Shown one piece after another: positions 14,843-51,366 of a stretch of 64,000 nt of DNA. The DNA lies in NCBI RefSeq assembly GCF_058153355.1, contig NZ_CM177019.1. One strand, given 5' to 3'. The notes under the pieces were generated by a model, which saw only the letters and a list, made by a program, of their open reading frames with translations, was not told the origin of the DNA and searched no databases. A program made the translations under genes and the position numbers. The stretch's first letter is position 1. The number at the start of each line of letters is the position of its first letter.

Positions 14843-14851
14843 AAGAACGCC

Positions 14852-14874
14852 AGAGCCTGCCAATGGCAGGCTCT
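14852..14874 (+). terminator. Hairpin downstream of gntP (AGAGCCTGCC-AATG-GCAGGCTCT)
   Basis: Perfect 9-10 bp stem seen in sequence; weak T tract, so low confidence. Confidence 0.35.
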
Positions 14875-14889
14875 GTTCGGATTGTCGGC

Positions 14890-28751: not shown

Positions 28752-28887
28752 GGAGAATGTCCTTATACGTTCTCAGAACAGGCAGCAAAAAAACAAATGA
28801 GATCAAGGTAATATATCTTCACTTGCAGGCTTGAACAGCAGAAAATTTGCGAGCATGATCGCAATTATTTCACTGCCAGGGATATCA

Positions 28888-29760
28888 ATGGCTTCCAGTA
28901 AATCGCTACAGCAGGCAATTGCCAACATAAAAATCTGGCACAAGGGTGAACAGCGCGCGCCGCATAAGCCATTGTTACTGCTATACGTATTAGCGGGATA
29001 CCTGAATGGACATCCGCGCCTTTTCGATTATGGCTCGGAAATCTACGAACCTCTGCACAGTTTACTGGAACGTTTTGGGCCACAGCGTTCACAGTACCGA
29101 CCTGATATGTCGTTCTGGCGATTACAAGGCGACGGATTCTGGCAATTACACAATGCCGAACTTTGCTCAACAGCAGGGAGTAGCCGACAACCGCCAGTGA
29201 AGGAACTGACCGAACACCGCGTTGCAGGCGGTTTCGATGAACAGCACTATGCCCTGGTAATCGGCAATAAAAAACTCATCAATACCCTAGCGCAACAGAT
29301 ACTCGAAGCGCACTTCACCGAGAGCATTCAGGAAGAAATTGCTGACGAGCTGGGTTTTGATCTCCAGCAAATCCGTAAACAGCGCGACCCGTTATTTCGC
29401 AAAAATGTATTACGCGCTTATAAATACCAGTGCGCGATATGTGGCTTTAATATGCGCCACGACGACACCACCGTCGCGTTGGAAGCGGCGCATATAAAAT
29501 GGAAACAGCACGGCGGTCCTTGTGAAATTCCTAATGGCCTGGCGCTTTGTGCAATACACCATAAAGCCTTTGATAAAGGATCGATTGGCCTGGATGAAAA
29601 TATGCGGGTACTGGTCTCGGATGCGGTAAACGGCGGAGGGATCGTTGAGAAACTATTCTGGGATTTTGACGGGAAAACTATTGCGTTACCACAGGTGCGT
29701 AAAAATTACCCTTTTGAGGGGTTTGTGGAGTGGCATCGAAAAGAGGTTTTTAGGGGGTGA
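28888..29760 (+). CDS. HNH nuclease-domain protein (~290 aa from ATG at 28888; ORF track begins at a TTG at 28831), candidate modification-dependent restriction endonuclease
   Basis: C-terminal CAICGF...EAAHIKW...NGLALCAIHHKAFD motif resembling the HNH_2-type nuclease fold; AGGGA Shine-Dalgarno before 28888; N-terminal domain unassigned. Confidence 0.65.
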   Translation: MASSKSLQQAIANIKIWHKGEQRAPHKPLLLLYVLAGYLNGHPRLFDYGSEIYEPLHSLLERFGPQRSQYRPDMSFWRLQGDGFWQLHNAELCSTAGSSRQPPVKELTEHRVAGGFDEQHYALVIGNKKLINTLAQQILEAHFTESIQEEIADELGFDLQQIRKQRDPLFRKNVLRAYKYQCAICGFNMRHDDTTVALEAAHIKWKQHGGPCEIPNGLALCAIHHKAFDKGSIGLDENMRVLVSDAVNGGGIVEKLFWDFDGKTIALPQVRKNYPFEGFVEWHRKEVFRG

Positions 29761-29761
29761 G

Positions 29762-29817
29762 GTAGGCTATCTTGTGCATACAAATAGACAAATAAATTGT
29801 ATAAAGAGATAGCCTAC
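29762..29817. terminator. Inverted repeat (GTAGGCTATCT ... AGATAGCCTAC) between convergent genes; possible bidirectional terminator
   Basis: 11-bp perfect inverted repeat with ~34-nt AT-rich loop seen in sequence. Confidence 0.3.
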
Positions 29818-29822
29818 AAATA

Positions 29823-31133
29823 CTAAATAAATTCAGCCCCACTAGGAAAACGCAACTCTGATGTCTGTAAACTCTCGCCAATAAAGAAAGGTACAACCCA
29901 TAAACGTAACCTATTTTCCTTCTGATGGCTAAATTCATAAGGATGAGGAGATGGCTGATTAAATCCGTTATGATAGGGGTATATCAAAATCATATCACCT
30001 TCCCCCTCCTGGTAATTCAATCCATAGGCAAGCATTTGGTAGAGATCGGCTTGAGATTGCTCAAGACTGTCCTTTCTGCCATTAACTATCTTCCATTTAA
30101 CATCACAGGTAATAACTGAACCAGTAGTACTTTTACGAGGCCGTAAACAAATATCAGGCCGCAGCTTAAATAAAGCTTTACCGTTATAACTAATCAGATT
30201 TTTTGAACTTACCTGTGCGTCCACTCGCCATTTATCATAATAACGATAACGCATCCATGTCGTCACAAAAGATTCAAAAACAGCCTCCATCGGGAAAAGC
30301 AGTGAAAAAGCATTAACATCCCCATACATACAGTGTGGAGAATCGCCCAATAAAATCATCTTCGCCCACGCTAATGCTTGCTCATAGTGATGCATTTGTC
30401 TATCAAAGTGTAACTGCTCGAAAGCTATATAAGCATCATGAACTGACGTGATATTTTCAAAGTGAAACTGCAGCTGTGTTATCTGCTGTAATAATTGTGG
30501 ATTACTGGTCTGGCGACTAATCTTATTGATTGCAGTTTTGAGTATCCGGTTTTCCAGACGATTGACGCTGTACTCGTCATACTCTACCTGAAAACGATCC
30601 CGCCTAATACAGTTTTTGCTTAATTGTGCAGAGATCCGTAATCTTCCTTTCATCCATGGAAGATTATCTTCCTGACGTAAATAGTCACGTTTTAACCCTC
30701 TCTGCACAATCTTACGCACGCTCTCTATAAATTGTTGAATAAAGATATCCATCAGAGGCATTTTAGATATTTTGACGCCAGATTCAGAGGAGGCAATATG
30801 ACGAAATGATTTTAACGTACGTAACATCATCAGTAATTGTTGACGAACAGTATCCTCATTATCCTGACCTGTTTTAGGCAGGATTTCGAGAAATCGCCCC
30901 CCTGGCAGTGAGATTACTCCTGCATAGTTTTTTACCTGCAGCGTTTTTACTCCATTCCGGCTGCTAAGGGTGAGCAAACGATGAGTATTATCAGCATCGT
31001 CTTTCAGACAGCGCAGCTCAAGCCATTTAAATAGGTCTGCAGGTAGCACTACCGCATTATTTATACGGGCATCACCTTCCTCACTCACTAAATGCCCGTA
31101 TTCGAACACAGTGAAATGACTGGAAGATTTCAT
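29823..31133 (-). CDS. McrC-like nuclease subunit of a McrBC-type modification-dependent restriction system (start at MKSSSHF; ORF track TTG start at 31199)
   Basis: ATG overlaps the stop of the upstream McrB-like gene (ATGA overlap); size and position typical of McrC; sequence is not the K-12 McrC. Confidence 0.7.
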   Translation of the reverse strand: MKSSSHFTVFEYGHLVSEEGDARINNAVVLPADLFKWLELRCLKDDADNTHRLLTLSSRNGVKTLQVKNYAGVISLPGGRFLEILPKTGQDNEDTVRQQLLMMLRTLKSFRHIASSESGVKISKMPLMDIFIQQFIESVRKIVQRGLKRDYLRQEDNLPWMKGRLRISAQLSKNCIRRDRFQVEYDEYSVNRLENRILKTAINKISRQTSNPQLLQQITQLQFHFENITSVHDAYIAFEQLHFDRQMHHYEQALAWAKMILLGDSPHCMYGDVNAFSLLFPMEAVFESFVTTWMRYRYYDKWRVDAQVSSKNLISYNGKALFKLRPDICLRPRKSTTGSVITCDVKWKIVNGRKDSLEQSQADLYQMLAYGLNYQEGEGDMILIYPYHNGFNQPSPHPYEFSHQKENRLRLWVVPFFIGESLQTSELRFPSGAEFI

Positions 31134-33184
31134 TCCGCACTCCTGCGTTTTTCTTTTTGAGGTGCATAAATTTGCTGCCAGGCGATTGGATTGTCCCAAA
31201 CGTTGTCATCCTCTGCTGCCAGGTGAAAACTGGTTCCCAAGTCATCTGTTCCGTTATCACCAAAGAGATCGGCATACTTTTTCTGGTATTTCACCTCACG
31301 TACAAATTGAAGATCTGGTGCTTCCTCTTTTTGGTTATCAGCCAGTACCATGCGAATTTTTTGCCAGTCATTGTAAAAATATTCTTCCAGCAATGGTAGT
31401 ATCTTATTTCGCATAATCCGTTTGAATCTTTCAAATGCCAGAGCTTCGTCTTCTTTTGCCTGCACAACAGGGATAAAAAAAGCATGCCCCAGCATATGTT
31501 CTCTATCGTATAAAACCTGGATGCGATCGTTAAGCGTCTGCAATAGACGAGGCAGATCAATACCTTTAATGACAGTATCTTTCAGAACAGTAATATCTGG
31601 CAGCATCGCTTCAAAATCAAATCTGCGACGTAGTGCAGTATCAAGTGCAGTAAGCGAATGATCAGCAGTGTTCATGGTACCAATTAAATAAAGGTTATTC
31701 GGTACACTAAATGGAGTGGAAGAGTATGGCAGCAATACGCTAAGCGATTCTGGCTCACCAGCCCGTTTAGATGGCTCAATAAGGGTAATTAGTTCACCAA
31801 AAATTTTTGAAATATTACCCCGATTTATTTCATCAATAATGAGAACATAGTTTTCCTTTTTTTCTGAAGCTACGCTCTGAGTATTCAGAGGCAGATAACG
31901 TTGATTAATTAAATAGTTAAGGATACTGCGTACATAAGATGGATTATGTACTTTTGCTCGTGGATCCTGATAAACTTGCCGAATATCCTTCAAATAGGCA
32001 TTGTAACCCTGTCCTAAATCCTCTTTTTTCGATTGTGACGGAAAAATTCCAAAGTTGGTTTGACTTTTATACGTCAGCTGGAAGGCCTTACCCTGTTGTG
32101 TTTCCAGCGTGATATTTTCACCTTCAGATAAACGTTCTTGTAGGCGAGTAAGTGCGCTATCCAACATTTCCTGCGCACCAGCATGACCAAAGGCGGCATC
32201 CTCGCATATCTGTTTAAAAATACCTGCCTTTATTTCGTATTTTACATTACCGTCATCAGTAGTCTCAGCTCTTAAACCTTCAATAAACTCTTCATAACCA
32301 AAGCTCTGATGAAAGGTGATAAAACGCACTCGATTATCTTTGATAAGCTGATCATAAATCTTTTTCAACTCGCGACGTTTTTCACTCTCATCCTTACCCT
32401 CCTGCAGGGAGTAAGCGATCGGATCACAAATTTGTACAGCAAGCTCAATAGTACGATATGTTTTACCTGTACCTGGCGGGCCATAGAGAATTGTGTTTTT
32501 AGGCAATGGCGAACTTATAACATCATCTTCTTGCTCATTTTCTTGTAAAGCACTTTCGCTTCCAACTAAACCGATAGCATTTTTATCCTGAATTTCATAC
32601 GCATAGAGATGCCAAAGTGACATATTCAGCTCAATAGGGTCGATATCATCACCCAGCGCACGATTTAGCGTTTCTTTAAGATCAACATTGCGAGCCAGCC
32701 ACTCCCGTTCTCCGGAAAGACCTAGCTGGAAATGGTTGTTGCAATAATTGTAGCAACTAAAAAAATTATTAACATTCACGACACTGCTAATTTTTGATGG
32801 GTATATTGCTGCAAAAGCACGATTACAAAGAGCCCTATATACCTTATTTAATACTCCGTCCGCTTTAAGTTTGATAAGACGTTCAATGACCCGATTATAA
32901 TTTTCTTGTGTACACTCTTCTGCTATCTGACGGGTGAGCGTTAGAAGGTCTTTTTGTGCATTTTCAAATTCAACCAATGACATCCCACCTTGCATCAGGC
33001 TGGAGACACCATTGTCACGTTCATACCATACCTGCCGAATCGTGGCTTCAGAAAAGTTTGGTTTTTCGGCCTGAATCTGTTCTACAAGCTCGCGGTAGTG
33101 TTTGCCCCAAACTGAATTGTATTGATTATTTTTTTCAATTTGAGCACGAAAGAAGGGGGCTAATGCTGATGAATCCTGAACCAT
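31130..33184 (-). CDS. McrB-like AAA+ GTPase subunit (684 aa) with a divergent ~230-aa N-terminal domain
   Basis: Walker A LYGPPGTGKTY and McrB-signature MNTADHS...RRRF motifs; N-terminal region has no resemblance to the K-12 McrB DNA-binding domain. Confidence 0.78.
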   Translation of the reverse strand: MVQDSSALAPFFRAQIEKNNQYNSVWGKHYRELVEQIQAEKPNFSEATIRQVWYERDNGVSSLMQGGMSLVEFENAQKDLLTLTRQIAEECTQENYNRVIERLIKLKADGVLNKVYRALCNRAFAAIYPSKISSVVNVNNFFSCYNYCNNHFQLGLSGEREWLARNVDLKETLNRALGDDIDPIELNMSLWHLYAYEIQDKNAIGLVGSESALQENEQEDDVISSPLPKNTILYGPPGTGKTYRTIELAVQICDPIAYSLQEGKDESEKRRELKKIYDQLIKDNRVRFITFHQSFGYEEFIEGLRAETTDDGNVKYEIKAGIFKQICEDAAFGHAGAQEMLDSALTRLQERLSEGENITLETQQGKAFQLTYKSQTNFGIFPSQSKKEDLGQGYNAYLKDIRQVYQDPRAKVHNPSYVRSILNYLINQRYLPLNTQSVASEKKENYVLIIDEINRGNISKIFGELITLIEPSKRAGEPESLSVLLPYSSTPFSVPNNLYLIGTMNTADHSLTALDTALRRRFDFEAMLPDITVLKDTVIKGIDLPRLLQTLNDRIQVLYDREHMLGHAFFIPVVQAKEDEALAFERFKRIMRNKILPLLEEYFYNDWQKIRMVLADNQKEEAPDLQFVREVKYQKKYADLFGDNGTDDLGTSFHLAAEDDNVWDNPIAWQQIYAPQKEKRRSAE

Positions 33185-33542
33185 CTCTTAATCCAATATG
33201 TAGGGGGGAGGGAAATTGGGATAGCCTTATCTTATCGGATTAATCTCAAAAATGTTAAATTTTATGATAAAAAAAAACTTTCATCCTGAAATTACCTTCT
33301 GCCCTGGAGCCGCCACATTTATCTGATGACTTTGAACTGCAAAACGCATGGTGTTGGTGGTTCTCAGAGAAGGCCATAGCATTCTTTCAGACGTAAAATC
33401 GCTACTCGTTTTTCAACCTGTGTGCATTTTCTAGTTGCATAGGGAATCAACTGTTTTTCAGGTAGGTATTGTTTACAGTAAATGGATATGCCGAAATTCA
33501 GAGGGTTCCAGTAACGACATTTTGACAGCAAACATACGACAT

Positions 33543-34376
33543 TCATTTTGCTGATAACGCTGACGGATAGTGCTTCGCCACAATGTCATTCATCTTATCC
33601 ACCAGATCCAGTCGCTTGAATGTGATGTGTCCACTGCCTTTCTGGTAATAGCGGATGACAAATAAATCGTCATTAAATACCTGCTCATGCGGGTGAGCAC
33701 TAACGAAGTCCATAAACCGAATCGCAACATCATGCCGGTTATCGGGAATGGCCTTCCCATCCAGCAGATAGAACATCCGTTCCAGATCGGCAAGCTGATC
33801 TCGCCGCCAGCCCCAGTGCAGGCTGTAACCCCATCGGTCATGCTTCACCAGATTGTTAACGATAATCTTCTTACCGAAATAACAGGGATTATTGGTTTTG
33901 TAATCCCAGCTCAATCCCTTAAATACATTGATAATCCCACGTTCGAAAACGTCATGCTTATTGTGGTGGAGTTGTTCAAAGGTACTCAGGATGTTGGCTT
34001 CGCTAATCGCCGGGAGATCGCCCTCCTCCAGGTTCTTTGCCCACTGACTGCGGGCTTCGGCATCCATCAGAGTCAACATCCCGGACTTCAGCATGAGATC
34101 GCGCCAGATGCTGCGATCGATATTGCGGGTGATCGCCGACATCGCTTTGTCGGTTGGTTGCATCAGCCAGCAGTCAAAGGCATATCCATTACGCATTCCC
34201 CAGGTTCCAGCCACATCACCGCCAATACTGGATGTCAGACTGGAGATATCATCCAGTTTTTGGATTAGCGTCGCTATCAGCTTCAGTGCGCTATCACGTC
34301 CTGTGACGATACGCTCAATATTGGTCGAGCGAATTATCTCGTTGTGATCGGTTAAGACTTCAGCTTCTGTTTGCAT
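33543..34376 (-). CDS. Hypothetical protein (277 aa), same strand and upstream of the McrBC-like pair; possibly a DUF4942-type protein (low confidence)
   Basis: Uninterrupted ORF, no recognised catalytic motif; located inside the defence island. Confidence 0.5.
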   Translation of the reverse strand: MQTEAEVLTDHNEIIRSTNIERIVTGRDSALKLIATLIQKLDDISSLTSSIGGDVAGTWGMRNGYAFDCWLMQPTDKAMSAITRNIDRSIWRDLMLKSGMLTLMDAEARSQWAKNLEEGDLPAISEANILSTFEQLHHNKHDVFERGIINVFKGLSWDYKTNNPCYFGKKIIVNNLVKHDRWGYSLHWGWRRDQLADLERMFYLLDGKAIPDNRHDVAIRFMDFVSAHPHEQVFNDDLFVIRYYQKGSGHITFKRLDLVDKMNDIVAKHYPSALSAK

Positions 34377-34682
34377 AATCTTTCATCCGTAAAAAAATAC
34401 ACTCGCCGTTAGTAGCAGACGGATTATCCTCTGGTGAAAGATTGGGTAAATAATGAGATTGAAAATCGGGAAGGTGACTCGCAATAAATTATCTGATCAC
34501 CTACGGATGGACGATGGGCATATAAAATAGCCTCCTGACTCAAACGGTGAATGCTGAATAAGATGCACTAACAATCTGGTACTGAATCCCCTCCTCACCG
34601 TCATACAAATCTGAAAAACCAAAAAACTTCCGGTAAAATCCCGGCAAAAGCCGACGTTAAAAACACATTCAAAGGATAAAAA

Positions 34683-36239
34683 ATGACCAGTCTTCAGCAG
34701 CGCGCGGAGCTTCATCGCCAAATCTGGCAAATTGCTAACGATGTCAGAGGTTCGGTCGATGGATGGGATTTTAAGCAATACGTTCTGGGCGCGCTTTTCT
34801 ACCGTTTTATCAGCGAAAATTTTTCCAGCTATATTGAAGCCGGTGATGACAGCATCTGTTATGCGAAACTGGATGACAGCGTAATTACTGATGACATTAA
34901 AGACGATGCCATCAAAACCAAAGGCTACTTCATCTACCCAAGTCAGCTTTTCTGCAACGTAGCTGCGAAAGCAAATACCAATGACAGACTGAACGCAGAT
35001 TTAAACAGCATCTTCGTTGCTATCGAAAGTTCTGCTTACGGTTACCCTTCAGAAGCTGACATCAAAGGTTTGTTTGCTGATTTCGATACCACCAGTAACC
35101 GCCTGGGTAATACCGTTAAGGATAAAAATGCCCGCCTGGCCGCGGTTCTGAAAGGGGTTGAAGGGTTAAAGCTTGGCGACTTTAACGAACATCAGATTGA
35201 CCTGTTCGGCGATGCCTATGAGTTCCTGATTTCTAACTATGCGGCGAATGCCGGTAAGTCAGGCGGCGAGTTCTTTACACCGCAGCACGTCTCTAAGCTG
35301 ATTGCACAACTGGCTATGCACGGGCAGACCCACGTTAACAAAATCTACGACCCGGCAGCGGGTTCCGGTTCGCTGTTGTTGCAGGCTAAAAAGCAGTTTG
35401 ATGACCACATCATCGAAGAAGGTTTTTTTGGTCAGGAAATCAACCATACGACCTATAACCTGGCGCGTATGAACATGTTTTTGCACAACATCAACTACGA
35501 CAAGTTTGATATCAAGTTGGGCAATACGCTGACTGAGCCGCACTTCAGAGATGAAAAACCGTTTGACGCCATCGTATCTAACCCACCGTATTCGGTGAAA
35601 TGGATAGGCAGCGATGACCCGACGCTGATTAACGATGAACGTTTTGCCCCGGCTGGCGTCCTGGCCCCCAAATCAAAAGCTGACTTCGCCTTTGTACTAC
35701 ATGCGCTGAACTATCTTTCTGCCAAAGGTCGTGCTGCGATTGTCTGCTTCCCGGGTATTTTTTACCGTGGCGGCGCAGAGCAGAAAATCCGTCAGTATCT
35801 GGTTGATAATAACTATGTCGAAACCGTGATTTCACTGGCTCCGAACCTGTTCTTTGGCACCACCATTGCCGTCAATATTCTGGTGTTGTCTAAACATAAA
35901 ACCGATACCAAAGTTCAGTTTATTGACGCCAGCGAACTATTCAAAAAAGAGACTAACAACAACATTCTGACCGATGCCCATATCGAACAGATTATGCAGG
36001 TATTTGCCAGCAAGGAAGATGTTGCTCATCTGGCGAAATCTGTCGCGTTTGAGACCGTTGTCGCTAATGACTATAACCTGTCGGTAAGCAGCTATGTGGA
36101 AGCGAAAGATAACCGCGAAATTATCGATATCAGTGAGCTGAATGCTGAGCTGAAAACCACGGTCAGCAAAATCGACCAGTTGCGTAAAGATATTGATGCG
36201 ATTGTGGCTGAAATTGAAGGCTGCGAGGTGCAGAAATGA
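34683..36239 (+). CDS. hsdM: Type I restriction-modification system methyltransferase subunit HsdM (type IC, EcoR124-like)
   Basis: 518 aa; N6-adenine MTase motifs ([10 protein letters not shown] motif I; IVSNPPYS motif IV); closely resembles recalled EcoR124I HsdM. Confidence 0.93.
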
Positions 36240-37390
36240 ACGAGTTGAGTTATCTGGAAAAATTACTGGATGGGGTTGAGGTTGAGTGGTTGCCATTGGC
36301 TAAAGTTTGTCGTTTAATAAACGGGAGAGCATATAAGCAAGAAGAACTGCTTTCCAAAGGCAAATATCCAGTATTAAGAGTCGGTAATTTTTTTACTAAC
36401 CAAAATTGGTATTACTCAGATTTAGAATTAGATCAAGACAAGTATTGTGATAACGGTGACCTTTTATATGCTTGGTCCGCATCATTTGGTCCAAGAATTT
36501 GGCATGGGGGTAAATCTATTTACCATTATCACATATGGAAAGTGGTTCCAGATTCGAATCTTATTTGTAAACAGTTTCTATATTACTTGTTACAATGGGA
36601 TACTAAAGCACTTAAAGATGCACATAGCACTGGTTCTACTATGATGCACATCAGCAAAACTACAATTGAAAAAAGGTTAGTCCCCATCCCCTGCCCGGAT
36701 AATCCGGAAAAATCCCTTGCCATCCAGTCTGAAATCGTTCGGATTCTGGATAAATTTACTGCACTTACCGCTGAGCTTACCGCTGAGCTTAATATGCGAA
36801 AAAAACAGTACAACTACTATCTCGACCAGTTACTGAATCTTGAGGGTAGGGAAAATACTCGAGAAATGAGGATAGGTGATATTTATGATTTTCAGTATGG
36901 AACAGGCAATACAATTCCTAAATCTGGAGGGCAATATCCTGTTTATGGTAGCAACGGGATTGTAGGCTCCCATGACAAATATAACAGCGAAGACTCACCT
37001 GTTATTGGCCATATAGGTGCTTACGCAGGAATCGTTAACTGGGGCCAGGGTAAGCATTTTGTTACATACAACGGAGTTATTTGTAGGCACAAATCGAAGG
37101 AAGTTCTTCAAAAATACGCCTACTATTTATTACTTTTACAAGATTTCGGTTCAAAATCTAATAGTGCATCACAGCCTTTTGTTTCATATAACATATTAAA
37201 TGCTCCTATTGTTTTGGTTCCCCCTTTACAAGAGCAAGCTCGTATCGTCGCAATACTCGATAAATTCGACACCCTGACCAACTCCATCACCGAAGGTCTT
37301 CCGCGTGAAATCGAGTTGCGCCAGAAACAATACGAGTACTATCGTGATTTACTGTTCAGTTTCCCAAAACCTGAAACTCTCAGTAATTAA
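36236..37390 (+). CDS. hsdS: Type I R-M specificity subunit HsdS (type IC) with two target-recognition domains
   Basis: 384 aa; conserved central ([35 protein letters not shown]) and C-terminal ([33 protein letters not shown]) type IC regions flanking variable TRDs; 4-bp overlap with hsdM. Confidence 0.9.
36764..36787 (+). repeat. Two tandem copies of a 12-bp unit (CTTACCGCTGAG) encoding TAEL-TAEL in the HsdS central conserved region
   Basis: Perfect 12-bp tandem duplication seen in sequence; in type IC systems the copy number of this repeat sets the spacer length of the recognition site. Confidence 0.85.
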
Positions 37391-37511
37391 TTGACCATTA
37401 TTACAGACCGGACCATCTTAATATCCGGTCAGTATATAGACTATTTTTTACACGCCGGAAGTCACCATTAACCCCCTTCCGGCCCTTGCCAGACGGCACA
37501 AAGGATGCGCT

Positions 37512-40500
37512 ATGACTCATCAAACACACACCATTGCTGAATCCAATAACTTTATCGTTCTTGATAAGTACATCAAAGCTGAGCAAACAGGCGACAGCTA
37601 TCAGAGCGAATCGGACCTGGAACGTGAACTGATTCAGGACCTGCAAAATCAGGGCTATGAATTTATACCCGTAAAATCACAGTCAGCGATGCTGGCCAAC
37701 GTTCGGGAACAGCTTCAGAGCCTCAATGGTGTGGTGTTTAATGACAGCGAGTGGCGGCGTTTCACGGAGCAGTATCTGGATAACCCGAGCGATGGCATTC
37801 TGGATAAGACCCGTAAAATCCATATCGACTATATTTGCGACTTTATTTTTGATGACGAGCGACTTGAGAACATCTATTTGATAGATAAAAAGAATCTCAT
37901 GCGCAATAAGGTGCAGATTATCCAGCAGTTTGAACAGGCGGGTTCCCACTCTAACCGCTATGATGTCACGATCCTGATTAATGGCTTACCACTGGTACAA
38001 ATCGAACTGAAAAAGCGCGGCGTGGCGATTCGTGAGGCTTTCAACCAGATACATCGTTACAGTAAAGAGAGTTTTAACAGCGAAAATTCCCTGTTTAAGT
38101 ATCTGCAACTGTTTGTCATTTCTAACGGCACCGATACCCGTTACTTTGCCAACACCACAAAGCGCGATAAAAATAGTTTTGACTTCACCATGAACTGGGC
38201 GAAATCAGACAACACGCTGATTAAAGACCTCAAAGATTTTACCGCTACCTTTTTCCAGAAACATACTCTGCTTAATGTTCTGGTGAACTACAGCGTGTTC
38301 GATATTAGCCAGACGCTACTGGTGATGCGACCGTACCAGATTGCCGCCACCGAACGAATCTTATGGAAAATCAACAGCTCCTATAAAGCGAAAAACTGGT
38401 CTACCCCCGAAAGCGGTGGCTTTATCTGGCACACCACCGGTTCCGGTAAAACCCTGACCAGCTTTAAAGCTGCGCGTCTGGCAACAGAGCTGGACTTTAT
38501 TGATAAAGTCTTCTTCGTGGTCGACAGAAAAGACCTCGATTACCAGACCATGAAGGAATATCAGCGTTTTTCGCCAGATAGTGTTAACGGTTCGGAAAAT
38601 ACCGCAGGCCTGAAACGAAATCTGGATAAGGACGATAACAAAATTATCGTCACCACTATTCAGAAACTTAATAACCTGATGAAAGCAGAAAGCGACCTGC
38701 CTGTATACAATCAGCAAGTGGTGTTTATATTTGATGAATGTCACCGCAGCCAGTTTGGAGAAGCGCAGAAAAACCTGAAGAAGAAATTCAAACGCTATTA
38801 TCAGTTTGGTTTTACCGGCACACCTATTTTCCCGGAAAACGCTTTAGGCTCAGAAACGACCGCCAGCGTATTTGGTCGTGAATTGCATTCGTATGTGATT
38901 ACCGATGCGATTCGTGATGAAAAAGTGCTCAAATTCAAGGTGGACTATAACGATGTGCGGCCACAATTTAAGTCTTTAGAGACAGAAACCGACGAGAAAA
39001 AACTGAGTGCGGCTGAAAATCAGCAGGCGTTTCTTCATCCCATGCGTATACAGGAAATTACGCAATATATTCTGAATAACTTCCGCCAGAAGACCCACCG
39101 TACTTTCCCAGGTTCCAAAGGCTTTAATGCCATGCTGGCAGTGAGTAGCGTGGATGCCGCGAAAGCCTATTACGCGACGTTTAAACGGTTACAAGAGGAA
39201 GCCGCTAATAAATCTGCTACCTATAAACCACTACGTGTTGCGACAATCTTCTCCTTTGCCGCTAATGAAGAACAAAATGCCATTGGTGAAATTTCCGATG
39301 AAACTTTTGATACCAGCGCAATGGACAGCAGTGCTAAAGAGTTTCTCGACGCTGCAATTCGTGAATATAACAGCTATTTTAAAACTAACTTCAGTACCGA
39401 CAGTAACGGTTTTCAGAACTACTATCGTGATTTAGCCCAACGGGTTAAAAATCAGGATATCGATCTGTTAATTGTCGTTGGGATGTTTTTAACCGGCTTC
39501 GACGCTCCAACATTGAACACGCTATTCGTCGATAAAAACTTGCGTTTTCACGGCCTGATGCAGGCATTTTCCCGCACCAACCGCATTTATGACGCCACTA
39601 AAACCTTCGGTAACATCGTCACTTTTCGGGATCTGGAACGCTCAACCATTGATGCCATAACGCTGTTTGGTGATAAAAATACCAAAAATGTGGTGTTAGA
39701 AAAGAGTTATGCCGAGTATATGGAAGGCTTTACAGATGCTGCCACTGGTGAAGCTAAACGCGGCTTTATGGCAGTAGTTTCAGAACTGGAACAACGGTTC
39801 CCTGACCCTGCCAGTATTGAAAGTGAAAAAGAGAAGAAAGACTTCGTTAAACTGTTTGGTGAATACCTGCGCGCCGAGAACATCCTGCAAAACTATGATG
39901 AATTTGCCACGCTGAAAGCCCTGCAACAAATCGATCTTAGCGATCCTGTTGCGGTAGAAAAATTCAAAGCAGAACATTATGTGGATGATGAAAAGTTTGC
40001 TGAATTACAAACGATTCGTCTCCCTGCTGAACGTAAGATTCAGGATTATCGTTCGGCCTATAACGATATTCGTGACTGGCAGCGCCGCGAGAAAGAAGCT
40101 GACAAAAAAGAAAAATCAACCACTGACTGGGATGACGTGGTTTTTGAGGTCGATTTGCTGAAGTCTCAGGAAATAAACCTGGATTATATCCTTGGACTGA
40201 TTTTCGAACACAACAGACAAAACAAAGGTAAGGGCGAAATGACCGAAGAGGTCAAACGCTTAATTCGTTCGAGCCTTGGGAACCGTGCCAAAGAAGGCCT
40301 GGTGGTCGATTTTATTCAACAAACGAACCTGGATGATTTGCCGGATAAAGCCAGTATCATTGACGCGTTCTTTATCTTTGCTCAACGCGAACAGCAACGT
40401 GAAGCAGAAGCGTTGATTAAAGAAGAAAATCTCAATGAAGAAGCAGCGAAACGCTATATTCGCACGTCTTTAAAACGCGAATACGCCACCGAAAATGGCA

Positions 40501-40628
40501 CAGAATTAAACGAGACGTTACCAAAACTTAGTCCGTTAAACCCGCAATATAAAACGAAAAAACAGACGGTTTTCCAGAAGATCGTCGCGTTTATTGAGAA
40601 GTTTAAAGGTGTAGGCGGGCAGATATAA
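37512..40628 (+). CDS. hsdR: Type I restriction enzyme R subunit HsdR (type IC, EcoR124-like), 1038 aa
   Basis: SF2 helicase motifs ([24 protein letters not shown]) and N-terminal nuclease region; near-identical over long stretches to recalled EcoR124I HsdR. Confidence 0.93.
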
Positions 40629-40852
40629 TGTATTAATCCGAACCTGATCTGGCAGATAGCTGTCAGATCAGGACTGAGCTAATACAAATTAATATCGAAC
40701 CGAAAATACCAACGCCTGTACCAACATTTTTCGTTTGCGATGGGTTGAAATTGGTTGGCTCTGAGAGAGTTAAAATAGCGAGAAAGATAGGTAACTAATG
40801 GATCCCAGACACAAAAAAAGCCGCCCTTGAGCGACTCGATTTGCATACGATG

Positions 40853-40937
40853 TGGTGCCGAAGGCCGGACTCGAACCGGCACGTATTTCTACGGTTGATT
40901 TTGAATCAACTGCGTCTACCGATTTCGCCACTTCGGC
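40853..40937 (-). tRNA. leuX: tRNA-Leu (anticodon CAA), leuX
   Basis: 85-nt sequence on the minus strand matches recalled leuX (GCCGAAGTGGCGAAATCGGTAGACGCAGTTGATTCAAAATCAACCGTAGAAATACGTGCCGGTTCGAGTCCGGCCTTCGGCACCA); its 3' end faces the island. Confidence 0.95.
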
Positions 40938-41132
40938 ACTGAAGAGGTATGCGGAAAACGTTGTGGATTATACCTGTCGCACGCCACCATGCAAGCGCCA
41001 GCTTGCACCCACTTTGCTAAGTGCTGAAATTTTCAGCATTGCATACCGCGATGTGTAACCTTTGTCACACTCCAGGCACCCCGCCCTACCATGCTCTACA
41101 CTTCCCAGACAACACCAGAGAAGGACAAAAAT

Positions 41133-42218
41133 ATGTCGATGATAAAAAGCTATGCCGCAAAAGAGGCTGGCGGCAAACTGGAAGTTTATGAGTACGATCC
41201 CGGTGAACTGAAGCCACAAGATGTCGAAGTGCAGGTGGATTACTGCGGGATCTGCCATTCCGATCTGTCGATGATCGACAACGAATGGGGATTTTCACAG
41301 TATCCGCTGGTTGCCGGGCATGAGGTGATTGGGCGCGTGGTGGCGCTCGGGAGCGCCGCGCAGGATAAAGGTTTGCAGGTCGGTCAGCGTGTCGGGATTG
41401 GCTGGACGGCGCGAAGCTGTGGTCACTGCGATGCCTGTATTAGCGGTAATCAGATCAACTGCGAGCAAGGTGCGGTGCCAACAATTATGAATCGCGGCGG
41501 TTTTGCCGAGAAGTTGCGTGCAGACTGGCAATGGGTGATTCCACTGCCGGAAAATATCGATATCGATTCCGCCGGGCCGCTGCTGTGTGGTGGTATCACG
41601 GTCTTCAAACCACTGTTAATGCACCATATCACTGCCACCAGCCGCGTTGGGGTAATTGGTATTGGCGGGCTGGGGCATATCGCTATAAAACTTCTGCACG
41701 CAATGGGATGCGAGGTAACGGCCTTTAGTTCTAATCCGGCGAAAGAGCAGGAAGTGCTGGCGATGGGTGCCGATAAAGTAGTGAATAGCCGCGATCCGCA
41801 GGCACTGAAAGCACTGGCGGGGCAGTTTGATCTCATTATCAACACCGTCAACGTCAGCCTCGACTGGCAGCCTTATTTTGAGGCGCTGACGTATGGCGGT
41901 AATTTCCATACAGTCGGCGCGGTCCTCACGCCGCTGTCTGTTCCGGCCTTTACGTTAATTGCGGGCGACCGCAGCGTCTCTGGTTCAGCAACAGGTACAC
42001 CTTATGAGCTGCGTAAGCTGATGCACTTTGCCGCCCGCAGCAAGGTTGCGCCGACTACCGAACTGTTCCCTATGTCGAAAATTAACGACGCCATTCAGCA
42101 TGTACGCGATGGTAAAGCGCGCTACCGAGTGGTCCTGAAAGCCGACTTCTGCTCCCTTTGCCGGGTGCCTGTCGCCCGGCTTTTAAATCTCTTTGGAAGG
42201 CGTCTCGCAATCTGCTGA
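41133..42218 (+). CDS. ahr: NADPH-dependent aldehyde reductase Ahr (YjgB), with a 22-codon C-terminal extension relative to the 339-aa K-12 protein
   Basis: Zn-dependent alcohol dehydrogenase family (GHEVIG, GxGGLG); start at [14 protein letters not shown]; no stop after ...VVLKADF. Confidence 0.88.
42160..42184 (+). terminator. Intrinsic terminator-like hairpin (GCCGGG-loop-CCCGGC followed by TTTT) lying inside the extended ahr reading frame
   Basis: 6-bp GC stem plus T tract seen in sequence. Confidence 0.5.
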
Positions 42219-42281
42219 ATTTAGCGGTGAAGAGTGCGCAGCCGTTGCCTATACTCCAGGCAGGAAACTGGAGGAAATCTC

Positions 42282-43784
42282 ATGAGCGAACCCCTGTTAA
42301 TTGCCCGCACGCCGGACACAGAACTGTTTTTACTGCCGGGAATGGCTAACCGTCACGGGCTGATTACTGGCGCAACGGGGACGGGTAAAACCGTTACGCT
42401 GCAAAAACTGGCAGAGTCATTGTCGGAAATCGGTGTTCCGGTGTTTATGGCCGATGTGAAAGGTGATTTAACGGGAGTAGCGGAGGAAGGTACATCTTCG
42501 GAAAAACTGCTCGCAAGGCTGAAAAATATCGGCGTCAATGACTGGCAACCACATGCTAATCCGGTGGTGGTGTGGGATATCTTTGGCGAGAAAGGCCACC
42601 CGGTGCGGGCGACGCTTTCAGACCTGGGGCCGCTGTTGCTGGCGCGACTGTTGAATCTCAACGATGTGCAATCTGGCGTGCTGGATATCATCTTCCGCAT
42701 TGCTGATGATCAGGGGCTGTTACTGCTCGACTTTAAAGATTTGCGGGCGATTACCCAGTACATCGGCGATAACGCCAAATCCTTCCAGAATCAGTACGGT
42801 AATATCAGTAGCGCATCGGTTGGTGCCATCCAGCGCGGGCTGTTATCGCTGGAACAGCAAGGCGCAGCACACTTCTTTGGTGAGCCGATGCTGGATATCA
42901 AAGACTGGATGCGTACCGATACCAACGGTAAAGGCGTTATCAATATCCTCAGCGCCGAGAAGCTTTATCAGATGCCGAAACTGTACGCCGCCAGCCTGCT
43001 GTGGATGCTTTCAGAGTTATATGAACAATTGCCTGAAGCGGGCGATCTGGAGAAACCAAAACTGGTGTTTTTCTTCGACGAAGCACATCTGCTGTTTAAC
43101 GATGCACCGCAGGTACTGCTGGATAAGATTGAGCAGGTGATAAGGCTTATTCGCTCAAAAGGCGTGGGCGTCTGGTTCGTTTCGCAAAACCCGTCAGATA
43201 TCCCGGATAACGTGCTCGGGCAGCTCGGTAATCGCGTTCAACACGCTTTGCGTGCTTTTACGCCTAAAGATCAGAAAGCAGTAAAAGCTGCGGCGCAAAC
43301 CATGCGGGCCAATCCGGCGTTTGATACCGAAAAGGCAATCCAGGAACTGGGGACCGGCGAGGCGTTAATCTCGTTTCTCGATGCGAAAGGAAGCCCTTCA
43401 GTGGTGGAACGGGCGATGGTGATTGCCCCCTGTTCACGAATGGGGCCGGTGACGGAAGATGAGCGTAACGGCCTGATTAATAACTCCCCGGTGTATGGCA
43501 AGTACGAGGATGACGTGGACCGGGAATCCGCCTATGAGATGTTGCAAAAAGGCTTTCAGGCCAGTACCGAGCAGCAAAATAATCCTCCCGCGAAAGGGAA
43601 AGAGGTGGCGGTGGATGACGGTATTCTTGGTGGATTGAAGGATATTTTGTTTGGCACTACCGGACCACGCGGCGGGAAGAAAGATGGTGTGGTGCAAACA
43701 ATGGCGAAAAGCGCCGCCCGCCAGGTGACGAATCAGATTGTGCGTGGTGTGCTGGGGAGTTTGCTGGGGGGGAGAAGAAGGTAA
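42282..43784 (+). CDS. yjgR: DUF853-family P-loop NTPase YjgR (start at [12 protein letters not shown])
   Basis: 500 aa; Walker A GATGTGKT; synteny. Confidence 0.85.
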
Positions 43785-43802
43785 GTCAGGTGCGATTTGT
43801 CT

Positions 43803-43842
43803 TTGCCTGATGCGACGCTGGCGCGCCTTATCATGCCTACAC
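43803..43842. repeat. REP element
   Basis: TGCCTGATGCGACGCTGGCGCGCCTTATCATGCCTAC REP-like palindrome. Confidence 0.5.
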
Positions 43843-43944
43843 TACTGCAATATATTGAATTTTCATGATTTTTCAGGCATGAACGAAGCACACTTTGCTA
43901 ACAATAATAAAGGGAGCTTTCGCTCCCTTTATTCGTTCATCCAG

Positions 43945-45027
43945 TTACGATTTTCTCATTAACAGCCACAGGCTGATTAAGAAGAAGCTGGCGCTTGGCA
44001 ACAGTGCGCCGATGATCGGCGGGATGCCGTAAACCAGCGTCAGCGGGCCGAAGATCTGGTCCAGTACGTAGAAGACAAAACCGAAGCTGATACCGGTGAC
44101 CACACGCACGCCCATCGGCACGCTACGCAGTGGGCCGAAGATGAACGACAGCGCCATCAGCATCATCACCGCCACGGATAACGGCTGGAAGATTTTGCTC
44201 CACATGTTGAGCTGATAACGTCCGGCATCCTGACCGCTCGACTTCAGATACTTCACGTAGTTGTGCAAACCACTGATGGAGAGTGCATCCGGGTCCAGCG
44301 CCACCACGCCCAGTTTGTCCGGCGTGAGGTTGGTTTTCCAGGTACCGCTCACCGTCTGTGAACCAGTGATCTGTTTCGGATTGGTCAGATCAGATTCATC
44401 AACCTGCGACAGACGCCAGACTTTATGTTCCGGGTCAAACTTCGCGGTAGCGGCATAGCGTACAGATTGCAGACGACGATTCTCATTAAAGGCATAGATA
44501 CTGATGCCACCTAACTCTTCGTCACCTTTAACCCGCTCAATGTAGACGAAGTTGTTGCCATCTTTTGCCCATAAACCTTGCTGGGTAGAGAGCAACGAGC
44601 CACCGTACATCGCCTGCGCACGGTAGTTACGCGCCATCTGCTCGCCCTGCGGTGCGACCCATTCGCCAATCGCCATCGTCAACAAGACCAGCGGAATGGC
44701 GGTTTTCATCACCGACAGTGCCACCTGCATACGGGTAAAACCAGAAGCCTGCATGACCACCAGTTCGCTGCGCTGCGCCAACATCCCAAGACCAAGCAAC
44801 GCCCCAAGCAGAGCCGCCATCGGGAAGAAGATTTGCACATCTTTCGGCACGCTCAGCAAGGTATACATTCCTGCGCCTAACGCGTCGTAACTCCCCTGCC
44901 CGGCTTTTTTCAGCTGATCGACAAACTTGATAATGCCCGACAGCGACACCAGCATGAACAGCGTCATCATGATGGTGGTGAAAATAGTTTTACCGATATA
45001 GCGGTCAAGTACGCCAAAAGGTTGCAT
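43945..45027 (-). CDS. lptG: LPS export ABC transporter permease LptG
   Basis: 360 aa; MQPFGVLDRYIGKTIF...; overlaps lptF stop. Confidence 0.95.
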   Translation of the reverse strand: MQPFGVLDRYIGKTIFTTIMMTLFMLVSLSGIIKFVDQLKKAGQGSYDALGAGMYTLLSVPKDVQIFFPMAALLGALLGLGMLAQRSELVVMQASGFTRMQVALSVMKTAIPLVLLTMAIGEWVAPQGEQMARNYRAQAMYGGSLLSTQQGLWAKDGNNFVYIERVKGDEELGGISIYAFNENRRLQSVRYAATAKFDPEHKVWRLSQVDESDLTNPKQITGSQTVSGTWKTNLTPDKLGVVALDPDALSISGLHNYVKYLKSSGQDAGRYQLNMWSKIFQPLSVAVMMLMALSFIFGPLRSVPMGVRVVTGISFGFVFYVLDQIFGPLTLVYGIPPIIGALLPSASFFLISLWLLMRKS

Positions 45028-46127
45028 CACACCGCTCCTTTACGCGAAAAACTGGCGCGCAGGCGGCGGACCGGCACGGTGTCCCAAAGGTTGAGAACAA
45101 TCGCCAAAGCCAGATAAATCAGGTTAACGGTCCACATCCACAGCGTCGGGTCCAGCTTACCTTTACCGCCGTTCGATTTCAGGGAGGTCTGGATCAGGAA
45201 GAACAACAGATACAGCAGCATGGCTGGCAGCATCGACAGTACGCGTCCCTGACGCGGGTTAACCACGCTCAACGGTACAACCATAAGTGCCATCATAAAC
45301 ACGGTGAATACCAACGTGATACGCCAGTTCAGTTCTGCGCGGGCACGATCGGTGTCAGTGTTCCACAATGTGCGCATGTCCATCTGGTCGGTATCGTTCG
45401 GATCGAGCGCCACCGCCTGGTGACCAATGATCGCCTGATAATCCTGGAAGTCCGTAATGCGGAAATCGCGTAACAGTGCAGTGCCTTCGAAGCGCGTTCC
45501 CTGGTTGAGAGTGACGACCTGGGAGCCGTCGCGCAGCTGGGTTAAATGTCCGGAATCGGCCACCACCACAGAAGGACGTGCATTACCTTTTGGTCGAATT
45601 TGCGCGAGGAACACATCTTTGAAATCGCTGCCGTCAACGCTTTCGATGAACAGCACCGAGCTGCCATTAGTCGCTTGCTGGAATTGCCCTTGCGCCAGCG
45701 CCGCCATGCCAGGGTTCGCTTTCGCTTCTGCTAACACTTCATCCTGATGACGCGATGACCACGGTCCCGCCCACATCACGTTAACCGCCGCGACGATTGC
45801 CGTGAATACCGCAAGGATCATTGCCGCTTTCACCAGCACCGCTTTGCTCAGGCCGCAGGCATGCATTACCGTAATTTCACTTTCGGTATACAGTTTGCCC
45901 AGCGTCATCAGCAGCCCGAGGAACAGGCTTAATGGCAGGATAAGCTGCGCCATTTCCGGCACGCCCAACCCGAGAAGGGAGAGCACCAGATTCGCCGGAA
46001 TATCGCCGTCAACCGCTGCGCCGAGGATCCTCACTAACTTTTGACAGAAGAAGATCAAAAGCAAGATGAAGAGTATCGCCAGCTGGCTTTTGAGCGTCTC
46101 CCGCACCAGATATCTTATGATTATCAC
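45027..46127 (-). CDS. lptF: LPS export ABC transporter permease LptF
   Basis: 366 aa; MIIIRYLVRETLKSQ... Confidence 0.95.
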   Translation of the reverse strand: MIIIRYLVRETLKSQLAILFILLLIFFCQKLVRILGAAVDGDIPANLVLSLLGLGVPEMAQLILPLSLFLGLLMTLGKLYTESEITVMHACGLSKAVLVKAAMILAVFTAIVAAVNVMWAGPWSSRHQDEVLAEAKANPGMAALAQGQFQQATNGSSVLFIESVDGSDFKDVFLAQIRPKGNARPSVVVADSGHLTQLRDGSQVVTLNQGTRFEGTALLRDFRITDFQDYQAIIGHQAVALDPNDTDQMDMRTLWNTDTDRARAELNWRITLVFTVFMMALMVVPLSVVNPRQGRVLSMLPAMLLYLLFFLIQTSLKSNGGKGKLDPTLWMWTVNLIYLALAIVLNLWDTVPVRRLRASFSRKGAV

Positions 46128-46390
46128 TTTAAATACGCCCGTAAAAACTCGTCTTTTGCAGGATTTTAGCTTGTTTCATGGCTTAAACGTCATTTATTCT
46201 CTTGAGTCGTCGAAATCGTCGCTAAGATAATTATACTCAACGGATTCACCTCTCAGATTTTGTTCTGACGTGCCAATGCCGTAATAACGTTAAGATTAAC
46301 ACGAAGTCATCGCAACAGCGGACATGAGTTACGAAAGCTTGCAATTCTATCTGTAGCCACCGCCGTTGTCTTTAAGATTCAGGAGCGTAG

Positions 46391-47905
<1,515 letters not shown>

Positions 47906-47924
47906 TTGCATCAGGCTGTGTTGT

Positions 47925-48035
<111 letters not shown>

Positions 48036-48067
48036 CATATTTAAATCCACCACAAGAAGCCCCATTT

Positions 48068-48511
48068 ATGAAAAACGCGACGTTCTACCTTCTGGACAAT
48101 GACACCACCGTCGATGGCTTAAGCGCCGTTGAGCAACTGGTGTGTGAAATTGCCGCAGAACGTTGGCGCAGCGGTAAGCGCGTACTCATCGCCTGTGAAG
48201 ATGAAAAGCAGGCTTACCGGCTGGATGAAGCCCTGTGGGCGCGTCCGGCAGAAAGCTTTGTTCCGCATAATTTAGCGGGAGAAGGACCGCGCGGCGGTGC
48301 GCCGGTGGAGATCGCCTGGCCACAAAAGCGTAGCAGCAGCCCGCGCGATATATTGATTAGTCTGCGAACAAGCTTTGCAGATTTTGCCACCGCTTTCACA
48401 GAAGTGGTAGACTTCGTTCCTTATGAAGATTCTCTGAAACAACTGGCGCGCGAACGCTATAAAGCCTACCGCGTGGCTGGTTTCAACCTGAATACGGCAA
48501 CCTGGAAATAA
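48068..48511 (+). CDS. holC: DNA polymerase III chi subunit
   Basis: 147 aa; TAATG overlap with valS as in E. coli. Confidence 0.94.
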
Positions 48512-51366
48512 TGGAAAAGACATACAACCCACAAGATATCGAACAGCCGCTTTACGAGCACTGGGAAAAGCAGGGCTACTTTAAGCCTAATGGCGATGAA
48601 AGCCAGGAAAGTTTCTGCATCATGATCCCGCCGCCGAACGTCACCGGCAGTTTGCATATGGGTCACGCCTTCCAGCAAACCATCATGGATACCATGATCC
48701 GCTATCAGCGCATGCAGGGCAAAAACACCCTGTGGCAGGTCGGTACTGACCACGCAGGGATCGCTACCCAGATGGTCGTTGAGCGCAAGATTGCCGCAGA
48801 AGAAGGTAAAACCCGTCACGACTACGGCCGCGAAGCTTTCATCGACAAAATCTGGGAATGGAAAGCGGAATCCGGCGGCACCATTACCCGTCAGATGCGC
48901 CGTCTCGGCAACTCCGTCGACTGGGAGCGTGAACGCTTCACCATGGACGAAGGCCTGTCCAATGCGGTGAAAGAAGTTTTCGTTCGTCTGTATAAAGAAG
49001 ACCTGATTTACCGTGGTAAACGCCTGGTAAACTGGGACCCGAAACTGCGTACCGCAATCTCTGACCTGGAAGTGGAAAACCGCGAATCGAAAGGTTCGAT
49101 GTGGCACATCCGCTATCCGCTGGCTGACGGCGCGAAAACCGCAGACGGTAAAGATTATCTGGTGGTTGCGACCACTCGCCCGGAAACCCTGCTGGGCGAT
49201 ACCGGCGTGGCCGTTAACCCGGAAGATCCGCGTTACAAAGATCTGATTGGCAAATATGTCATTCTGCCGCTGGTTAACCGTCGTATTCCGATTGTTGGCG
49301 ACGAACACGCCGATATGGAAAAAGGCACCGGCTGCGTGAAGATCACTCCGGCGCACGACTTTAACGACTATGAAGTCGGTAAACGTCACGCCCTGCCGAT
49401 GATCAACATCCTGACCTTTGACGGCGATATCCGTGAAAGCGCTCAAGTGTTCGATACTAAAGGTAACGAATCTGACGTTTATTCCAGCGAGATCCCAGCA
49501 GAGTTCCAGAAACTGGAGCGTTTTGCTGCGCGTAAAGCGGTCGTTGCCGCGGTTGACGCACTCGGCCTGCTGGAAGAAATTAAACCGCACGACCTGACCG
49601 TTCCTTACGGCGACCGTGGCGGCGTGGTTATCGAACCGATGCTGACCGACCAGTGGTACGTACGTGCCGACGTGCTGGCGAAACCGGCGGTTGAAGCGGT
49701 TGAGAACGGCGACATTCAGTTCGTACCGAAGCAGTACGAAAACATGTACTTCTCCTGGATGCGCGATATTCAGGACTGGTGTATCTCTCGTCAGCTGTGG
49801 TGGGGTCACCGCATCCCGGCATGGTATGACGACGCGGGTAACGTTTATGTTGGCCGCAACGAAGACGAAGTGCGTAAAGAAAATAACCTCGGTGCTGATG
49901 TTGCCCTGCGTCAGGACGAAGACGTTCTCGACACCTGGTTTTCCTCCGCGCTGTGGACCTTCTCCACGCTCGGCTGGCCGGAAAACACCGACGCCCTGCG
50001 TCAGTTCCACCCAACCAGCGTGATGGTATCTGGTTTCGACATCATCTTCTTCTGGATTGCCCGCATGATCATGATGACCATGCACTTCATCAAAGATGAA
50101 AATGGCAAACCGCAGGTGCCGTTCCACACCGTTTACATGACCGGCCTGATTCGTGATGACGAAGGCCAGAAGATGTCCAAATCCAAGGGTAACGTGATTG
50201 ACCCGCTGGATATGGTTGACGGTATTTCGCTGCCGGAACTGCTGGAAAAACGTACCGGCAATATGATGCAGCCGCAGCTGGCGGACAAAATCCGTAAGCG
50301 CACCGAGAAGCAGTTCCCGAACGGCATTGAGCCGCACGGTACTGACGCGCTGCGCTTCACCCTGGCGGCGCTGGCTTCTACCGGTCGTGACATCAACTGG
50401 GATATGAAGCGTCTGGAAGGCTACCGTAACTTCTGTAACAAGCTGTGGAACGCCAGCCGCTTTGTGCTGATGAACACAGAAGGTCAGGATTGCGGCTTCA
50501 ACGGCGGCGAAATGACGCTGTCGCTGGCGGACCGCTGGATTCTGGCGGAGTTCAATCAGACCATTAAAGCGTACCGCGAAGCGCTGGACAGCTTCCGCTT
50601 CGATATCGCCGCAGGCATTCTGTATGAATTCACCTGGAACCAGTTCTGTGACTGGTATCTCGAGCTGACCAAGCCGGTAATGAACGGTGGCACCGAAGCA
50701 GAACTGCGCGGTACTCGCCATACGCTGGTGACTGTACTGGAAGGTCTGCTGCGCCTCGCGCATCCGATCATTCCGTTCATCACCGAAACCATCTGGCAGC
50801 GTGTGAAAGTACTTTGCGGCATCACCGCTGACACCATCATGCTGCAGCCGTTCCCGCAGTACGATGCGTCTCAGGTCGATGAAGCCGCACTGGCCGACAC
50901 CGAGTGGCTGAAGCAGGCGATCGTTGCGGTACGTAACATCCGTGCAGAAATGAACATCGCACCGGGTAAACCGCTGGAGCTGCTGCTGCGTGGTTGCAGC
51001 GCGGATGCAGAACGTCGCGTAAATGAAAACCGTGGCTTCCTGCAAACGCTGGCGCGTCTGGAAAGCATCACCGTGCTGCCTGCCGATGACAAAGGTCCGG
51101 TTTCTGTTACGAAGATCATCGACGGTGCAGAGCTGCTGATCCCGATGGCTGGCCTCATCAACAAAGAAGATGAGCTGGCGCGTCTGGCGAAAGAAGTGGC
51201 GAAGATTGAAGGTGAAATCAGCCGTATCGAGAACAAACTGGCGAACGAAGGCTTTGTCGCCCGCGCACCGGAAGCGGTCATCGCGAAAGAGCGTGAGAAG
51301 CTGGAAGGCTATGCGGAAGCGAAAGCGAAACTGATTGAACAGCAGGCTGTTATCGCCGCGCTGTAA
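48511..51366 (+). CDS. valS: Valine--tRNA ligase
   Basis: 951 aa; class I synthetase HIGH ([14 protein letters not shown]) and KMSKS motifs. Confidence 0.97.

Follow-up and report, generated by a model that had tools for sequence, protein, structure and literature searches.

In the 64-kb window analysed here (that is, the whole stretch of DNA, 64,000 nucleotides), ahr and yjgR lie directly next to each other on the same strand, forming an empty site at the very position where E. coli K-12 carries idnK and idnDOTR, and the difference between the two chromosomes is a replacement (90 bp in the window, 5.09 kb in K-12) rather than a simple gap. We consider it likely that the window and K-12 hold two alternative alleles of this site, that recombination in the flanking genes has exchanged them, and that a separate stop-loss mutation has altered ahr. 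The window allele is a 129-bp spacer in three parts: the presumed terminator hairpin of ahr, a conserved stretch of about 60 bp and the region upstream of yjgR. In the K-12 allele a lower-GC catabolic cassette of 5.09 kb (idnK plus idnDOTR), starting right after the ahr stop codon and stopping 39 bp short of the yjgR ATG, stands where the window has the first 90 bp of its spacer. Both alleles appear to be old, and they segregate in E. coli, where about 59% of genomes have the empty site and about 38% have idn. Separately, an A-to-C change at 42152 has cost ahr its stop codon, which adds 22 spacer-encoded residues and brings the end of the open reading frame to within 63 bp of yjgR.

The window is oriented in reverse of K-12. 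The features on which the argument rests are the following (positions in the window, strand):

40853-40937, minus strand: leuX, tRNA-Leu(CAA) (ARAGORN), placed relative to ahr as in K-12
41133-42152, plus strand: ahr, NADPH-dependent aldehyde reductase, canonical 339 codons plus the stop position (tblastn)
42150-42218, plus strand: 22-codon C-terminal extension of Ahr with a new TGA stop at 42216-42218 (translation, ORF list)
42153-42242, plus strand: empty-site-specific 90-bp segment, whose K-12 counterpart is idnK, idnD, idnO, idnT and idnR
42160-42184, plus strand: terminator-like hairpin, GCCGGGTG-CCTGT-CGCCCGGC, then TTTT (consensus scan)
42243-42281, plus strand: yjgR upstream segment common to both alleles, GTTGCCTATACTCCAGGCAGGAAACTGGAGGAAATCTC (alignments with K-12, Citrobacter FP75 and C. 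werkmanii)
42282-43784, plus strand: yjgR, a DUF853/HerA-like C-terminal domain protein of 500 aa (tblastn, RefSeq annotation of relatives)

By tblastn, the Ahr of the window matches that of K-12 at 98.8% identity over 339 aa (41133-42149) and its YjgR matches at 98.4% (42282-43742); to the right of yjgR come lptG and lptF on the minus strand and then pepA on the plus strand. The RefSeq annotation of MG1655 gives the order pepA, lptF, lptG, yjgR, idnR, idnT, idnO, idnD, idnK, ahr, leuX, in agreement with the position of idn between ahr and yjgR on which the initial annotation had made its case depend. Its main claim, that the idn genes are missing from this position, also holds: a tblastn search of the 64-kb window with the five K-12 Idn proteins found no orthologs or remnants of idnK, idnD, idnO, idnT or idnR but only distant paralogs (for IdnT, a GntP-type transporter at 13565-14836 with 41% identity; for IdnO, an SDR at 59595-60287 with 27%; for IdnD, Ahr itself with 33%). 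The polymorphism had rightly been placed beside leuX, the junction being one gene away from it with the entire ahr gene in between. The gap of about 60 bp that had been reported is correct for the ahr open reading frame of this window, which runs to a stop at 42216-42218 and so leaves 63 bp (42219-42281) before the yjgR ATG at 42282, but it is not the distance from the normal stop (42150-42152), which is 129 bp; the gap is that short only because ahr is 22 codons longer in the window.

Break points were taken from a blastn comparison of the window with the K-12 locus, in which the aligned blocks cover 40693-42151 on the ahr side and 42243-48000 on the yjgR side. The left break point thus falls on the final base of the stop codon of ahr (42151/42152), and the right one lies 39 bp 5' of the yjgR ATG, at GTTGCCTATACTCC (42243), the 5' edge of the segment common to both alleles. 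Between these points K-12 has 5087 bp (positions 6104-11190 of its locus, L001) and the window has 90 bp (42153-42242), for which blastn-short at a word size of 7 found no similarity in the K-12 locus other than chance 9-14-mers. The alignment with K-12 that had been proposed for defining end points and flanking repeats therefore delivered the former, and as to the latter, neither direct nor inverted repeats at the ends of the K-12 cassette exceeded those in shuffled sequences; between the two K-12 junction windows no direct match is longer than 6 nt, a length attained in 99% of shuffles. The difference is hence not the “clean” presence/absence polymorphism it had been called, since 5087 bp in K-12 face 90 unrelated bp here and no repeats flank them. 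One 8-mer, TCTCTTTG, which occurs both in the idnR-yjgR spacer of idn+ strains and in the empty-site spacer, was considered as possible microhomology and rejected as no different from chance; the Citrobacter empty allele is without it.

The replacement carries no signature of transposition or of site-specific integration, and the K-12 cassette does not have the make-up of a tRNA-associated island of the leuX type: it consists of idnK, D, O, T and R only, has no end repeats, and is situated on the 5' side of leuX, past ahr. At 47.3%, its GC content is lower than that of ahr, yjgR, lptFG and pepA (53.8-55.6%). The ahr and idnK genes of K-12 are convergent, with stop codons 3 bp apart, and the hairpin that follows ahr in the window is missing there.

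Counted from the normal ahr stop, the empty-site spacer measures 129 bp in the window and 128-129 bp in other idn-less strains, and over 136 bp here the window is 99.3% identical to strain 2013C-4282; alignments place a homologous spacer at the same position in ST131, VE-V11-M, 2013C-4282, E. albertii and Citrobacter werkmanii. The hairpin (42160-42180) begins 8 nt past the normal stop and has an 8-bp stem (7 of the pairs G-C) and a 5-nt loop, with TTTT next to it, so that by consensus match this is a G+C-rich stem-loop with a T run just 3' of a stop codon, as in an intrinsic terminator. Its predicted RNA fold has an energy of -17 kcal/mol (z = -1.9), and we presume that it serves as the terminator of ahr. 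A consensus scan of 41800-42500 found no sigma-70 promoter.

Outgroups came from a YjgR scan of species-representative genomes. The matches listed were mostly Betaproteobacteria, with at least eight usable enterobacterial loci among them, six having ahr near yjgR and two (both Yersinia) having no ahr nearby; the sample is without Salmonella, E. fergusonii and other Escherichia species. In E. albertii and C. werkmanii, ahr adjoins yjgR and the spacers align with that of the window over their full length; the three have in common the block CTTTGGAA..CTCGCAATCT..AATTTAGCGGTGAAGAGTGC as well as the position of the hairpin, the hairpin sequence of C. werkmanii being a different one. Citrobacter sp. 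FP75 has the order ahr-idnK-idnD-idnO-idnT-idnR-yjgR with the K-12 junctions, its cassette beginning directly after the ahr stop and ending, as in K-12, at the ATTGCC/GTTGCC boundary. In Enterobacter cloacae the slot holds another insert, about 1.9 kb in length, whose minus strand carries an ORF of 548 aa, and in Enterobacter sp. Ag1 and Leclercia 1.8-1.9 kb separate ahr from yjgR (loci L010 and L011); GTTGCCTATACTCCA, the first part of the 42243-42281 segment, is kept 5' of yjgR in E. cloacae and Leclercia. The ahr-yjgR site thus takes different cargo in different genera. The E. cloacae ORF (8217-9863 of locus L009) looks like a dihydroxyacetone-kinase-type protein.

As to polarity, we think it probable that the window has the empty-site allele and that K-12 has an old insertion, because a deletion cannot make the conserved, terminator-bearing 90 bp, while all of these features can be explained by an insertion in which some of the spacer was overwritten. 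The cassette itself appears to be old in both Escherichia and Citrobacter, and not a recent arrival, since the divergence of the idn genes between K-12 and FP75 (78-83% DNA identity) is about equal to that of the flanks (82-85%). Salmonella LT2, which we take to have idn at the ahr-yjgR site, would make the idn+ state look ancestral by simple parsimony.

In a collection of 5426 complete RefSeq E. coli genomes, 3212 (about 59%) have ahr and yjgR in a single contiguous match to the window junction, and 3211 have the 136-bp stretch (42110-42245) that includes the empty-site spacer. The K-12 ahr/idnK junction is present in 2051 and idnD-idnO in 2054, chromosomal in every case; as these two counts nearly coincide, idn is not normally located elsewhere in E. 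coli genomes. Together the two alleles cover about 97% of the collection (about 38% being idn), with the idn-less state in the majority, and the break points are identical across spread samples of the idn+ and idn-less genomes listed. To take K-12 as the reference state, as the initial annotation implicitly did, is therefore misleading, the idn-less arrangement being that of 59% of E. coli and also of E. albertii and C. werkmanii. We also observed that, among the 2054 carriers of idnD-idnO (8588-10407 of L001), 2001 match K-12 there at 99% identity or more, and that in ahr and yjgR K-12 differs by 4-5% from either the window or ST131. Diversity looks lower in the cassette than in its flanks, as might be expected of a fairly recent spread through E. 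coli.

The idn-less genotype is already known from the literature. Nissle 1917 is without idnK-idnDOTR, unlike K-12 and CFT073 (PMC7924626), and the same is true of ST131 H30 and H22, unlike the H41 strain SE15 (PMC5369007); the idn-less strains in both papers retained growth on gluconate (PMC7924626; PMC5369007). By analogy with these published strains, the strain from which the window comes is predicted to be without the GntII/idonate route and to use gluconate via GntI. A literature search for a paper tying idonate to leuX returned nothing relevant.

Both alleles are found in Escherichia as well as in Citrobacter, with identical break points, and it follows that at least one of them has moved between lineages by way of the homologous flanks, unless the polymorphism is very old. 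Since the cassette contains neither an integrase or transposase nor terminal repeats, homologous recombination through the conserved flanking genes would be the likeliest route of spread. The flanks of the window form a mosaic: over the 358 bp that start at 42243 they match the idn+ strain ACN002 at 99.7%, and the best full-length match to the junction (98.4%) is the idn-less VE-V11-M. Such flanks support ongoing recombination. Identity to K-12 is 94.6-94.8% for ahr and yjgR vs. 97.3-98.8% for lptF and lptG. We would put forward as a tentative proposal that the two alleles form a long-lived polymorphism, maintained by balancing selection on the use of idonate/5-ketogluconate or by repeated flank-mediated exchange, and that the stop-loss described below weakens termination in this strain.

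Mosaic flanks of this kind would also be expected had the idn genes been lost secondarily by allele replacement, an idn+ lineage having taken up an empty-site haplotype via recombination in ahr and yjgR; the empty site would then be ancestral in type and derived in its presence here. The mixed affinities to ACN002 and VE-V11-M and the greater distance of ahr and yjgR than of lptF and lptG from K-12 speak for such an event, as does the variation of the idn state inside clonal groups (CFT073 vs. Nissle 1917, PMC7924626; ST131 H41 vs. H30/H22, PMC5369007). An old cassette would suit a lineage that lost idn in this way as well as one that never had it; on balance we judge the replacement unlikely for this lineage and prefer the reading that the window simply carries the empty-site allele and, in addition, an unrelated change in ahr.

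This change is a single base. The ahr stop position (42150-42152) reads TGC in the window and TGA normally, an A-to-C substitution at 42152; from the end of ahr to position 42275, no other base differs from 2013C-4282. This stop codon is TGA in E. coli relatives and C. werkmanii and TAA in E. albertii. With a sense codon at a conserved stop, the frame stays open to the next stop, and the extension is encoded by former intergenic DNA, running through the hairpin, to give a total of 361 aa vs. 339. In VE-V11-M, ST131 and 2013C-4282, which are idn-less with the same junction, ahr has 1020 nt, 339 aa and a TGA stop. None of the 5426 complete genomes matches 42110-42245 perfectly (the best reaches 99.3%), and the exact 361-aa protein was found on one Logan contig only (SRR31441161), 7086 bp of which are 100% identical to the window and which is probably from the same strain or clone; the stop-loss appears to be essentially private to that clone among the genomes searched. 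Translation through the ahr hairpin could make termination less efficient and tie the expression of yjgR to that of ahr. In a separate observation, a ‘zinc-binding dehydrogenase’ on plasmid NZ_CP172870.1 (83524-83775) is 89.7% identical to the 3' part of ahr (41900-42151), and the match ends exactly at the ahr stop codon.

The initial annotation had seen the junction coincide with the altered 3' end of ahr, and the left break point is indeed at the stop codon, but the junction did not make the alteration: in strains with the same junction the stop is still TGA and Ahr has 339 aa, and the window shows a change of one base. Both the spacing of about 60 bp and the altered ahr 3' end exist because of the point mutation at 42152 and not because of the indel. 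This bears on the reading that a K-12-like idn+ ancestor simply lost 5 kb, by illegitimate or repeat-mediated deletion, with damage to the 3' end of ahr as well. A left break point precisely at the ahr stop codon and an altered ahr in the window are what one might expect of such an event, and the occurrence of idn at the same site in another genus, and hence its age, would suit it too. The junction, however, holds 90 bp that are foreign to K-12 and yet conserved, hairpin included, in E. albertii and C. werkmanii; neither repeats nor microhomology beyond chance mark the ends of the cassette; and ahr was altered separately, by a point mutation that other idn-less strains do not have. Simple deletion seems largely refuted, and we regard it as very improbable. 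That the whole is an artefact, through collapse of the junction during assembly or a sequencing error in the stop codon of ahr, could be suspected from a stop-loss base unique among 5426 complete genomes, but the junction itself is in 3212 finished genomes and the same base stands with 7086 identical bp in Logan assembly SRR31441161 (perhaps the same isolate), which makes this extremely unlikely.

The wider neighbourhood yielded observations of its own. No integrase or P4-type island accompanies leuX in the window, and its 3' side adjoins a defence cluster (28101-40628):

28101-28751, minus strand: HNH endonuclease
28831-29760: phosphorothioate-dependent restriction endonuclease-like ORF
29823-33184, minus strand: mcrC and mcrB
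between these and hsdM: a DUF4942 ORF
34683-36239: hsdM
36236-37390: hsdS
37512-40628, plus strand: hsdR, left of leuX

At least 80% of 30000-41100 is covered in 156 complete E. coli genomes, e.g., PE15, in which hsdM is split by an IS3 element (it is intact in the window). A stretch inside hsdS (36831-37226) does not align to the PE15 locus, which is 96-98% identical elsewhere, probably because the target-recognition domain of this type I specificity subunit has been exchanged. Further left of the defence cluster are nanM/nanC and fim, and a segment (13557-14887) with the GntP-family transporter gene noted above as an IdnT paralog, which PE15 does not have at that place, lies between the uxu and fim blocks as a further small presence/absence difference. 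Core genes, e.g., 42283-50000, are unusually distant from the 5426 complete E. coli genomes: the best full-length identity is 98.5%, nearly all E. coli records fall in a band of 95-99% identity, and K-12 is at 96.5% over 42243-48000; the source is an under-sampled lineage and may be a cryptic Escherichia clade.

An idn-less junction is, then, ordinary and in itself matters little. What it corrects is a K-12-centred view, in that the window has the majority allele, and probably the original one, rather than a deletion that it suffered. The practical effect would be the predicted lack of the subsidiary GntII/idonate pathway, and the only strain-specific item is the ahr stop-loss. The common break points in two genera would make the site a textbook-like case of cassette exchange by flanking homology, calling for no new mechanism.

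Hot spots of gene flux that lie between conserved core genes and have no integrase are a general concept in studies of bacterial pangenomes. Compared with these, the ahr-yjgR slot holds nothing, the idn cassette or, in E. cloacae, a segment of 1.9 kb, and with two alleles making up about 97% of E. coli its diversity is low next to that of the neighbouring leuX island site. Nissle 1917 and ST131 H30/H22 have the same adjacency of ahr and yjgR as the window, and the ST131 spacer differs from it at 3 of 129 positions; the clone represented by the window alone adds the TGA-to-TGC change in ahr, and its flanking genes are 4-6% diverged from those of these strains. With the GntII/L-idonate locus of K-12 (idnK, idnDOTR; Bausch et al., 1998, J Bacteriol 180:3704) the window shares the chromosomal site, between ahr and yjgR and one gene from leuX, and the two differ in what the site contains: a cassette of 5087 bp in K-12 where the window has a 90-bp segment of spacer.
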